A stretch of 1,086 bases of DNA, from NCBI RefSeq assembly GCF_003334815.1, contig NZ_QOWO01000107.1; one strand, written 5' to 3'. A program made the translations under genes and the position numbers. Positions 1-1,086 of the stretch are shown here, one piece after another (within the stretch, counting starts at the first letter, position 1; each line of letters opens with the position of its first letter). The stretch is from Escherichia coli. GTDB lineage: Bacteria; Pseudomonadota; Gammaproteobacteria; Enterobacterales; Enterobacteriaceae. The notes beneath the pieces are model-generated. The model was not told the origin of the DNA, did not search any database, and was given only the letters and a program-made list of their open reading frames with translations.

Positions 1-68
1 TTCGCCAGGAACGACCGGAACGCGGCATCATGCGGCGTGGGCGTTGTGGTGTTTTTCTTCTTACTCAC
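1..68 (-). CDS. hypothetical protein, 5' end only (continues past the left window edge); N-terminus MSKKKNTTTPTPHDAAFRSFLA...
   Basis: GTG start at 68..66 preceded by GGAGG (77..73) with a 4-nt spacer; the start overlaps the TGA stop (67..65) of the upstream gene as GTGA; frame stays open to the window edge (22 codons); the initiation region and first ~19 codons are homologous to the start of the 65..580 gene. Not in the ORF track because it is truncated by the window. Confidence 0.5.
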   Translation of the reverse strand, partial: MSKKKNTTTPTPHDAAFRSFLA

Positions 69-77
69 GGTTCCTCC
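51..77. repeat. 27-bp direct repeat, copy 1 (gtttttcttcttactcacggttcctcc); on the minus strand this is the SD plus GTG start of the 1..68 gene
   Basis: 25 of 27 nt identical to 563-589; weaker homology continues into both downstream coding regions. Confidence 0.8.
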
Positions 78-580
78 ATCAAATCAGCAGCATCGCAGCA
101 ATCATCGTCCAAATCCCCACAACCAAGAGGACAGCAATTGCGATCAAAGCCGTGACAACAATAGCCACGTTCTGCGTCACGGCGTATTTCTTCTGCAATC
201 TCTTCAGCGGAAAGGTAATCAAACTCCTCACGGGCCAGTTCCAGGACCAGCAGATGTTGTTCTGTCGGCAATGTAGACACAAAATTATCAATAGCAGCAC
301 TCAAACGTCGCTGATATAGCTCATAAACAAGACCACAACGGTGCATTAGTTCTTCGGATAATAGTTCCAGTTTTGAGCGAACGCTGTCAGCATTGAAAGT
401 GACTTCATCAGATGACATCTGAAAATCTTTGTCAGTGTCAAAACAAGACTTCATTTTTATCTCCTGCCCGTCCGGGCCCTGAATGAAAGAAAACCTGTTT
501 CCCTTCTCTGTTTTTTTATGGAACAGGAGGAATCCGGTACCATGCGACATAGACGTCATGATGTTTTTCATCTTGCTCAC
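65..580 (-). CDS. hypothetical acidic protein, 171 aa from GTG at 580 (alternative internal ATG at 454 would give 129 aa); Cys-rich C-terminal tail GYCCHGFDRNCCPLGCGDLDDDCCDAADLMEEP; no family recognised
   Basis: Long open frame (part of the 65..676 track ORF); GGAGG at 589..585 then 4 nt then GTG at 580..578; this initiation region is duplicated at the next gene; CTG/GAA/CGT-rich codon usage; roughly 34 Asp+Glu against 19 Lys+Arg by my count; stop TGA at 67..65. The track start at 676 is rejected: it has no SD and overlaps the upstream gene. Confidence 0.6.
   Translation of the reverse strand: MSKMKNIMTSMSHGTGFLLFHKKTEKGNRFSFIQGPDGQEIKMKSCFDTDKDFQMSSDEVTFNADSVRSKLELLSEELMHRCGLVYELYQRRLSAAIDNFVSTLPTEQHLLVLELAREEFDYLSAEEIAEEIRRDAERGYCCHGFDRNCCPLGCGDLDDDCCDAADLMEEP
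73..77 (-). promoter_or_regulatory. Shine-Dalgarno (GGAGG) for the 1..68 gene, embedded in the last codons (M-E-E-P) of the upstream gene
   Basis: GGAGG then AACC then GTG, with the GTG overlapping the upstream TGA as GTGA. Confidence 0.55.
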
Positions 581-589
581 GGTTCCTCC
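563..589. repeat. 27-bp direct repeat, copy 2 (gtttttcatcttgctcacggttcctcc); on the minus strand this is the SD plus GTG start of the 65..580 gene
   Basis: 25 of 27 nt identical to 51-77; differences at repeat positions 8 and 13. Confidence 0.8.
585..589 (-). promoter_or_regulatory. Shine-Dalgarno (GGAGG) for the 65..580 gene
   Basis: GGAGG then AACC then GTG; sits inside the duplicated 27-bp element. Confidence 0.55.
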
Positions 590-644
590 TGGTAAAGTAC
601 CTGAACATATCCTGCCACCTGCACAGACAGACGGCAGGGGGTAA

Positions 645-911
645 TCAGTGGCAGACCCGTTCAATTTCAAGCGCACGGAGCAGGTGCCCCCACTCGCTGA
701 CTTTCATGGCGGGGATACGCACCCGCTTCCGCTCACTGCAGCGTCTGGCGATATGACCGCCCATCGCCAGGACGTCCGGGTTAATCTCATCCGGTGCCAG
801 TTCCTGGCGTCTGAAGCGGGTATGGCGGTGCAGGGGTTTGTTCTCCCGCAGGCACTCTTCACGCAGACGCTTTACATATTCAGCCGTTGCAAAGATAATT
901 GATGGTCTCAT
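645..911 (-). CDS. hypothetical small basic protein, 88 aa (MRPSIIFATAEYVKRLREECLRENKPLHRHTRFRRQ...ERVCH); Arg-rich, possibly nucleic-acid binding; identity unknown
   Basis: ATG at 911..909 preceded by GGAG (923..920) with an 8-nt spacer; stop TGA at 647..645; Leu codons are CTG-dominated on this strand (6 of 8) versus CTC-dominated on the mirror plus-strand ORF; about 15 Arg + 4 Lys against 12 Asp/Glu. The track extends this ORF to 1007 (120 aa), but the extension crosses the terminator hairpin and uses rare AGG/ATA/CGG codons. Confidence 0.5.
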   Translation of the reverse strand: MRPSIIFATAEYVKRLREECLRENKPLHRHTRFRRQELAPDEINPDVLAMGGHIARRCSERKRVRIPAMKVSEWGHLLRALEIERVCH

Positions 912-919
912 GGCATAAT
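911..919 (+). promoter_or_regulatory. candidate extended -10 element (TGgCATAAT) on the plus strand
   Basis: TG at 911-912, one nt, then CATAAT at 914-919 (5/6 match to TATAAT); no convincing -35. A transcript from about 926 would end at the 979-1004 terminator. Sequence pattern only. Confidence 0.2.
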
Positions 920-923
920 CTCC
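920..923 (-). promoter_or_regulatory. Shine-Dalgarno (GGAG) for the 645..911 gene
   Basis: GGAG then 8 nt then ATG at 911..909. Confidence 0.45.
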
Positions 924-978: not shown

Positions 979-1004
979 GCAGGGTTTATCGCCCTGCTTT
1001 TTTT
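979..1004 (+). terminator. intrinsic (rho-independent) terminator hairpin, strongest on the plus strand; possibly bidirectional
   Basis: Stem GCAGGG (979-984) / CCCTGC (992-997), 7-nt loop TTTATCG, then T7 run (998-1004); an A-rich tract upstream (973-977) could extend the stem. On the minus strand the same hairpin is followed by the weaker tract CTTTCTCT. Confidence 0.6.
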
Positions 1005-1086
1005 CATTCCGGACAGCGACGCAGTGCCAGCGCGAGCGCTTTCATCTTCCAGCCTTCCGGCGTGCGGTACATCACCTTCCAGTAGC
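1004..1086 (-). CDS. 3' end of an unidentified gene entering from the right edge (C-terminus ...YWKVMYRTPEGWKMKALALALRRCPE, stop TGA at 1006..1004)
   Basis: Frame open from the window edge to the TGA, with CTG/GCG/CGT/CGC/CCG/GAA codons; stop is followed immediately by a hairpin. Not in the ORF track because the start lies outside the window. Only 27 codons are visible, so support is limited. Confidence 0.35.
   Translation of the reverse strand, partial: YWKVMYRTPEGWKMKALALALRRCPE

Follow-up and report, generated by a model that had tools for sequence, protein, structure and literature searches.

Two unrelated leading-region genes, ydfB/ygdA and ccgAII, as neighbours on IncI-complex conjugative plasmids

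Genes of the leading region decide whether resistance and virulence plasmids survive their first minutes within a new host, and among the 100 commonest leading-region families one third has no known function. Here we describe a 1,086-nucleotide stretch of Escherichia coli DNA (from contig NZ_QOWO01000107.1; the whole stretch is called the window here) that carries two leading-region genes side by side on its minus strand, a gene for a small basic protein of the YdaB/YdfB/YgdA family and the acidic-protein gene ccgAII.

Both families have been catalogued. In Samuel et al. 2024 (Nature 635:186), YdaB/YdfB/YgdA is family 1, the largest leading-region-enriched family, with 4,739 members labelled 'Uncharacterized', a median open reading frame (ORF) position of 6 from the origin of transfer (oriT), T-strand orientation and no match to the anti-CRISPR or anti-restriction sets. 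CcgAII is family 65 (715 members, 'Uncharacterized; Anti-restriction CcgAII', strand 1, median position 5), and known anti-restriction proteins match it neither in sequence nor in structure (Samuel et al. 2024). The passage of PMC5371602 that cites Delver and Belogurov 1997 gives the name as 'CUP-controlled gene AII' of the IncN plasmids pKM101/R46; the protein has been named since 1997 and its function is still only putative. On IncI plasmids, the authors of pO26-CRL125 annotated the acidic ORF as ccgAII within a 9.7-kb leading-region module with three Frpo-like repeats (PMC3817090), where the 'antirestriction' statement on ccgAII is a citation and not a result. Promoters of the Frpo/ssi type are active only on single-stranded DNA (ssDNA); in cells that have newly received F (PMC9849209) or IncI1 pESBL (PMC12672017), the expression that they drive is strong and transient.

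The exact sequence of the window, its two families and their enrichment in leading regions are therefore already published, and no new entity is added here. Taking the evidence below together, we think it probable that the window holds two unrelated, early-expressed establishment or anti-defence genes within a string of genes behind an ssDNA promoter, which have become adjacent through a ccgAII cassette.

Adjacent genes with independent distributions

Many IncI-complex conjugative plasmids of E. coli and Salmonella, pO26-CRL125 (NC_022996.1) among them, contain the window at 100 % identity. The window is matched in 1,349 of 5,426 complete E. coli genomes, nearly always plasmid-borne, and in 2,045 plasmids of PLSDB. 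We used plasmid pE2863-1 (L001) as the reference locus for gene order, which from oriT is oriT/nikA-nikB, DUF4942, a helix-turn-helix gene, an ORF of 73 amino acids (aa), Rpn, acidic, basic, 144-aa, ardA, psiA, psiB, parB and ssb. From the 73-aa ORF to ssb these genes occupy one strand, with transcription directed at oriT. In the R64-style names of pN601 (LC567082), the 144-aa gene is ygcA, the 88-aa basic gene ygdA, the acidic gene ccgAII and the Rpn gene ygdB. The genomic-context check proposed in a first-pass annotation of the window, made from its letters, thus came out in favour of a plasmid leading region: both genes are flanked by ardA on one side and oriT/nikAB on the other, share the strand of ardA, psiB and ssb, and lie downstream of a Frpo-type promoter.

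That annotation had located both ORFs, the basic one (645..911, minus) correctly as 88 aa with about 17 % Arg (15 residues, 17.0 %), and had put them forward as a candidate regulator/effector or anti-defence pair. The distribution of the genes contradicts the pairing. At the DNA level the basic gene occurs in 2,014 plasmids and the IncI-type ccgAII in about 510-530 (about 25 %), and the reference IncI1 plasmid R64 lacks ccgAII. In profile searches of the retrieved loci, none of 11 non-IncI basic-family genes had a CcgAII gene at a distance of up to about 6 kb, and no clear basic-family gene lay near 6 non-IncI CcgAII genes, save a degenerate 45-aa 'RIPAM' ORF, giving zero co-occurrence in 17 non-IncI loci. 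In the window itself the two genes are separated by 190 bp containing a hairpin and a relic of an Rpn start, a gap that leaves no translational coupling between them. The basic gene and ccgAII are not a conserved pair; they are unrelated accessory genes with independent distributions.

Their adjacency here has a structural explanation. R64 and the loci L002, L003 and L004 have rpn directly after the basic gene with no ccgAII between; the window, L005, L006 and L024 have a segment of ~520 bp at this place, made up of the rpn-start relic, ~65 bp matching other plasmids, and ccgAII. The relic (520..589, minus) forms the left cassette boundary and is a degenerate second copy of the beginning of rpn, comprising its ribosome-binding site, GTG and first ~18 codons; as a direct repeat of 70 nt it shares 76 % identity with window 8-77. 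By sequence search and alignment, the adjoining 455..519 (minus) is a cassette-borne upstream segment with the Shine-Dalgarno (SD) sequence AGGAG (461-465) of ccgAII, and it matches five other smaller plasmids (31-61 kb) with 81 % identity at sites without an annotated feature. At the far end, the last ccgAII codons (MEEP-stop) consist of the real rpn ribosome-binding site. The duplicated Rpn start at its boundary marks ccgAII as a cassette, either inserted at the rpn translation-initiation region or deleted from the other plasmids, which left the 70-nt duplicated relic, and the two genes are neighbours here for this reason.

The same relic is the source of a longer reading of ccgAII. Translation from GTG 580, a remnant of the duplicated Rpn start, would give 171 aa, and for that reading the 64-bp spacing and the net charge of about -15 in the first-pass annotation are right. 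We ruled it out on frame conservation: the window allele is the only one in which the relic GTG shares the frame of ccgAII, the offsets in L005, L006 and L024 (113, 112 and 112 nt) putting it out of frame there, so that the 171-aa and 203-aa annotations are artefacts. The start is ATG 454, which is conserved and RefSeq-annotated and has AGGAG 6 nt upstream; for this ORF the spacing is the 190 bp given above and the charge is -19.

The single-stranded-DNA promoter context

Plasmid pE2863-1 holds three copies of a 300-500-nt Frpo-type repeat (~13146-13476, 16467-16987 and 22808-23330), the outer two spaced by 9,724 nt, which is the size of the 9.7-kb module of PMC3817090. The middle repeat is directly upstream of ygcA, and its template (T) strand folds with a free energy of -175 kcal/mol (z = -9.2). 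The repeat is homologous to two sites of plasmid F; one of them, Frpo2, lies upstream of ssb, and the other, Frpo1, upstream of ygeA, a gene of 95 aa (PMC9849209). On an IncFIA/FIB plasmid (L027), the single plasmid inspected for the context of the ~45 %-identical relatives of the basic gene, a Frpo homologue is likewise found directly upstream of a 76-aa basic-family gene, the first gene after it. We found no sense-strand sigma-70-like promoter inside the window, and no Rfam family matched in the leading region or the window.

Between ygcA and the basic gene, a hairpin (GCAGGG-N7-CCCTGC, then a T-rich tract; 979..997, minus) may be a weak terminator-like element or an RNA or ssDNA structure. 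Its stem is kept in all six aligned loci, including L004, where the DNA is 75 % identical. With the ssDNA-promoter context, this hairpin and the lack of an internal sigma-70 promoter considered together, we infer on good grounds that both genes are transcribed from the ssDNA promoter within minutes of entry.

In the reading that we think probable, the window belongs to a string of early ('zygotically induced') genes carried by the leading region of an IncI-complex plasmid. The string runs from the Frpo/ssi-type ssDNA promoter through ygcA, the ydfB/ygdA-type basic gene, ccgAII and rpn to the 73-aa Rpn-C-terminal-like gene, in an orientation in which the incoming T-strand is the template for all genes. 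YdfB and CcgAII would each act alone in the recipient during establishment. The arrangement resembles the Frpo1-ygeA-ygeB operon of F (PMC9849209) in that a Frpo promoter near oriT precedes small genes and the repeat is homologous to Frpo1/Frpo2, and differs from it in that YgeA (95 aa) is homologous to neither window protein. In F, ygeA is an essential-looking early gene.

The two proteins and what they may do

The basic protein (annotated in RefSeq as WP_001247861.1) has a net charge of +7 and an isoelectric point (pI) of 10.2, and its ATG (911) follows an SD sequence, GGAG (919..922, minus), at 7 nt. The first-pass annotation held that neither protein could be assigned to a family from sequence alone; this is out of date, both belonging to catalogued ones. 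Searches of Pfam, NCBIfam, PHROGs and PDB sequences gave no family assignment for either; the exact 88-aa sequence is 'YdfB' in UniRef (Q7B1W6) and ygdA in pN601 (LC567082), and membership in YdaB/YdfB/YgdA agrees with sequence and, in pE2863-1, with position and orientation near oriT. With at least 5,000 plasmid records matched by tblastn, against 4,739 members in Samuel et al., it belongs to the largest leading-region family without known function. Among the tblastn matches listed, more than 3,000 records fall below 60 % identity, and sampled ones are ~45 % identical over residues 29-88. Within family 1 the window protein is a typical IncI member and nothing sets it apart; its relatives on IncF plasmids, at 76 aa, are shorter, their alignment being confined to residues 29-88.

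An exhaustive HMMER search extended the basic family to 72 cluster representatives of about 80-90 aa, with identity down to ~35 % and the consensus SII..YVK..R..E(I/V)DP...A.GRHIA....K...V(R/H)(I/V)PAM...(E)WG..LR.LELKRA. All distant members examined have NikA/relaxase or TraM/SLT next to them and share one orientation, their other neighbours varying from case to case, and distant members of the basic and CcgAII families alike adjoin oriT/relaxase on MOBP and MOBF plasmids. No phage homologues of the window proteins were found. On an IncF-like plasmid (L018), a 45-aa ORF at 4752-4886 (MSTRQIVQLADSLVKGWETRIPAMTFSEWDQFRWWLNYLQGYEMF), 1.1 kb upstream of the ccgAII of that plasmid, retains just the RIPAM..SEW core and may be a mini-version or decayed remnant of the basic family.

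The basic gene is a real coding gene under strong purifying selection. Against four IncI alleles, its ratio of nonsynonymous to synonymous substitution rates (dN/dS) is 0.03-0.09, and third codon positions take 10-13 of the 11-17 substitutions per comparison. The L004 copy, at ~75 % DNA identity, has the same 88 codons, free of indels, and a dN/dS of 0.42, compared to 0.56-1.6 in the other five frames. This settles in the positive whether the ORF is coding, a doubt raised by the first-pass annotation itself. Inverted repeats at 611-638 and 979-997 flank the gene and are both kept across IncI variants. The former, a hairpin after the basic-gene stop (611..638, minus) read from sequence and alignment, carries in L004 one compensatory C-G to T-A change in its stem, a hint that selection acts on an RNA or ssDNA hairpin there.

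The AF2 (AlphaFold2) model of the basic protein has three helices at a confidence (pLDDT) of 87. In a profile search of PDB sequences the best match of the family is the TCP15 DNA-binding domain, over 27 aligned positions and at a non-significant E = 0.24. The TCP domain (AtTCP15/AtTCP10; PDB 7VP3/7VP6) aligns with the family block ...K-G-r-r-V-R-I-P-A-M-x3-l-G-q-l-L-R-a-L-E; in TCP the beta3 'RIR/RVR saddle' pairs across the dimer and puts Arg into the major groove, with helix alpha1 next (PMC9841405). The basic protein has one helix after the motif and thereby departs from the layout of ribbon-helix-helix and TCP proteins, a strand then two helices in a dimer with paired strands; it also lacks the HU-like body and beta-arms of the HU/IHF fold. 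The likeliest role of this small protein is nucleic-acid binding, probably as a dimer; we take the TCP match as a lead to it and not as membership. Its conserved x-V-(R/H)-(I/V)-P-A-M strand and the following helix may contact DNA in the manner of the TCP 'RVR saddle'.

The acidic protein (65..454, minus; WP_001317525.1) is, judged by its sequence, a member of the CcgAII family. It has 129 aa, a net charge of -19, a pI of 4.2 and a predicted four-helix core (AF2 helices 22-40, 44-60, 64-78 and 83-95; core pLDDT 86-96), followed by a C-x-H...CC-P-x-G-C-G Cys/His knuckle and a lineage-specific tail, DCCDAADLMEEP. The helical middle and Cys-rich tail noticed at first reading are thus borne out, with 7 of the 9 Cys in the last 33 residues. 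Named CcgAII homologues of IncN and IncF plasmids, some mis-named CbiX, match at E 1e-41 to 1e-45; a profile search returned 142 members in Gamma- and Betaproteobacteria, and Foldseek against AFDB50 returned CcgAII or 'plasmid-related' proteins exclusively. The family motif G-L-x-Y-E-L-Y...S...E-F-D-Y...C-x-H-G...C-C-P-x-G-C-G is present, and across 38 CcgAII sequences G41, E45, S52, Y80, C99, H101, C108, P109, G111, C112 and G113 are invariant or nearly so. The simplest reading of the C99-x-H101...C108-P-x-G-C112-G knuckle is a small metal site, presumably for zinc.

The closest described relative, CcgAII of IncN pKM101/R46, shares 73-77 % core identity and the GLxYELYQRRLS...EFDY...C-x-H-G...CCPLGCGD motif, and is also small, acidic and located in the leading region close to oriT in the orientation of T-strand transcription. 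The IncI version differs in ~13 extra N-terminal residues and in its C-terminal tail (DCCDAADLMEEP). The repeat upstream of it is of the Frpo ssDNA-promoter type; the IncN gene owes its name to control by a CUP repeat and the ArdK repressor. Homologues on F-like, Xanthomonas and Vibrio plasmids also lie near oriT in T-strand orientation. The two IncI ccgAII alleles (window versus L005/L006) differ by 15 nonsynonymous and 3 synonymous changes, a dN/dS of 1.6, at 10 amino-acid positions of which 6 fall within residues 10-38. We dropped positive selection on ccgAII as an explanation since it was not significant (P = 0.34). The ratio nevertheless contrasts with that of the strongly constrained basic gene next to it.

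We hypothesize that CcgAII is a zinc-stabilised acidic helical protein that would bind and block a host protein, in anti-defence or host-reprogramming, and would not be a classical DNA mimic. The most likely roles are then nucleic-acid binding for YdfB and protein binding through a zinc knuckle for CcgAII. The independence of the two genes and their defined motifs (V-R/H-I-P-A-M plus helix; C-H-CC-C knuckle) offer precise mutants with which to test these roles.

Several points weigh against the reading of two separate, early-expressed establishment genes. The hairpin between ygcA and the basic gene means that read-through from the Frpo promoter past a weak terminator-like structure is an assumption. 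Zinc binding by CcgAII is read solely from conserved residues, and the published 'antirestriction' label derives from the name. Transfer to the window genes of the strong delta-ygeA phenotype of F is ruled out, since YgeA is unrelated and plasmid F (L028, 50000-67500) carries neither family, though many other IncF plasmids do.

A bolder version of these roles, which we regard as rather unlikely, makes YdfB/YgdA a new small dimeric DNA binder with a TCP-like Arg saddle, which would be produced from ssDNA promoters in the first minutes after entry and would control establishment by binding the plasmid hairpin promoters or host DNA. CcgAII would independently be a zinc-knuckle inhibitor of a defence, possibly of one that has the helical domain in common with it, in the N-terminus of the retron III-A PRTase.

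CcgAII could alternatively be an ArdA/Ocr-like DNA mimic that blocks type I restriction enzymes. It shares with these mimics a leading-region location, here near ardA, the logic of early expression and a strong negative charge (net -19, pI 4.2), and it bears the labels 'antirestriction' (PMC3817090) and 'Anti-restriction CcgAII' (table of Samuel et al.). It differs in showing no similarity by sequence or fold to ArdA (PF07275), ArdB/KlcA or Ocr, and the models of both window proteins resemble neither ArdA nor Ocr nor any solved anti-defence or regulator fold. We know of no ArdA or Ocr mimic with a Cys/His knuckle such as that of CcgAII. Of the anti-defence or DNA-mimic idea in the first-pass annotation, what stands is that CcgAII is flagged by name as putatively anti-restriction; a known mimic, anti-defence or regulator fold did not emerge. 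We judge a mimic of this kind improbable.

A role of CcgAII as a modulator of the downstream Rpn nuclease, for example as inhibitor or chaperone, is suggested by translational coupling. The rpn 5' end (ygdB, a transposase_31 nuclease; 1..68, minus; annotated coding sequence 14142-15068 of pE2863-1) begins with a GTG (68-66) that overlaps the ccgAII stop TGA (67-65) as GTGA, and the rpn SD GGAGG (73-77) sits within the final ccgAII codons. Rpn proteins are, moreover, toxic nucleases under small protein antitoxins (PMC10400941). However, no Rpn gene neighbours the CcgAII homologues of IncF-like, Xanthomonas and Vibrio plasmids, the majority of IncI plasmids carry rpn but no ccgAII, and rpn is already trailed by a separate 73-aa Rpn-C-terminal-like gene, so that we give this role little credence.

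A functional two-gene module of the basic gene and ccgAII, as regulator plus effector or inhibitor plus partner, would fit their opposite charges and their joint place on the same strand, adjacent in one transcription string in about 500 plasmids. It is largely refuted by the distribution, with ~75 % of the basic-gene plasmids, R64 included, lacking ccgAII and with no co-occurrence in 11 non-IncI basic-family and 6 non-IncI CcgAII loci; the cassette bounded by the duplicated Rpn start and the uncoupled 190-bp gap also speak against it, and we hold such a module to be very improbable.

Even less credible to us is a relation between the helical core of CcgAII and the N-terminal part (~65 residues) of the PRTase effectors of type III-A retrons, which would make CcgAII a decoy or inhibitor of such defence systems. 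Window CcgAII matches positions ~5-67 of 290 in the PADLOC PRTase_III-A profile (E = 6e-5), and 4 of 10 diverged CcgAII members match always the same region (E 2e-5 to 0.02), yet the fold search lends this link no support and the 129-aa CcgAII contains no PRTase catalytic domain.

Finally, the reading in which the basic ORF is non-coding and lies over a structured element of RNA or DNA, to which the small size and Arg richness of the ORF and the many frameshifted variants in databases might point, can be set aside, as it is refuted by the substitution pattern and opposed by the length kept at 75 % nucleotide identity, the motif conserved among the 72 representatives, the size of the frameshifted clusters (1-2 members versus 1,103 for the intact form) and the Rfam search without a match.

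Neighbouring genes and further repeats

The right end of the window holds the 3' end of the 144-aa gene ygcA (1004..1086, minus), whose coding sequence, 16004-16438 of pE2863-1, corresponds to window 1004-1438; in the string behind the Frpo/ssi repeat this gene comes first. It matches PHROGs 1987/23089 at E of about 1e-20, listed there without function, so that ygcA has phage relatives, unlike the basic gene and ccgAII. The gene is widely labelled 'post-segregation killing protein PndC', and this label looks wrong. We considered an upstream gene of ~145 aa as a conserved partner of the basic gene and ruled it out, the 146-aa protein of L008 not being homologous to ygcA.

Beyond the left end of the window, the 73-aa gene after rpn (13921-14142 of pE2863-1, minus) arose from the Rpn C-terminal region by duplication and has since diverged. 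It is part of a direct repeat (13942-14051 versus 14154-14263, 76 % identical), has 52 % identity to the rpn 3' end by tblastn, and is matched by NCBIfam Rpn models at positions 232-273 of 273. It resembles RpnS, the small antitoxins that are produced from within rpn genes (PMC10400941); here, however, the gene stands separately.

A 104-aa Arg/Pro/Ala-rich ORF (YffB/YchA in UniRef; 23151-23462 of pE2863-1, copies at 16807-16987) overlaps the Frpo repeats and recurs with them. This ORF is probably spurious and inflates the 'hypothetical protein' families in leading-region surveys. The same plasmid contains a second repeat family of 300 nt, 96 % identical between 17687-17986 and 24634-24933, upstream of ardA and of a klcA-like antirestriction gene, in agreement with the 'class 2' ssDNA promoters proposed for pESBL (PMC12672017).

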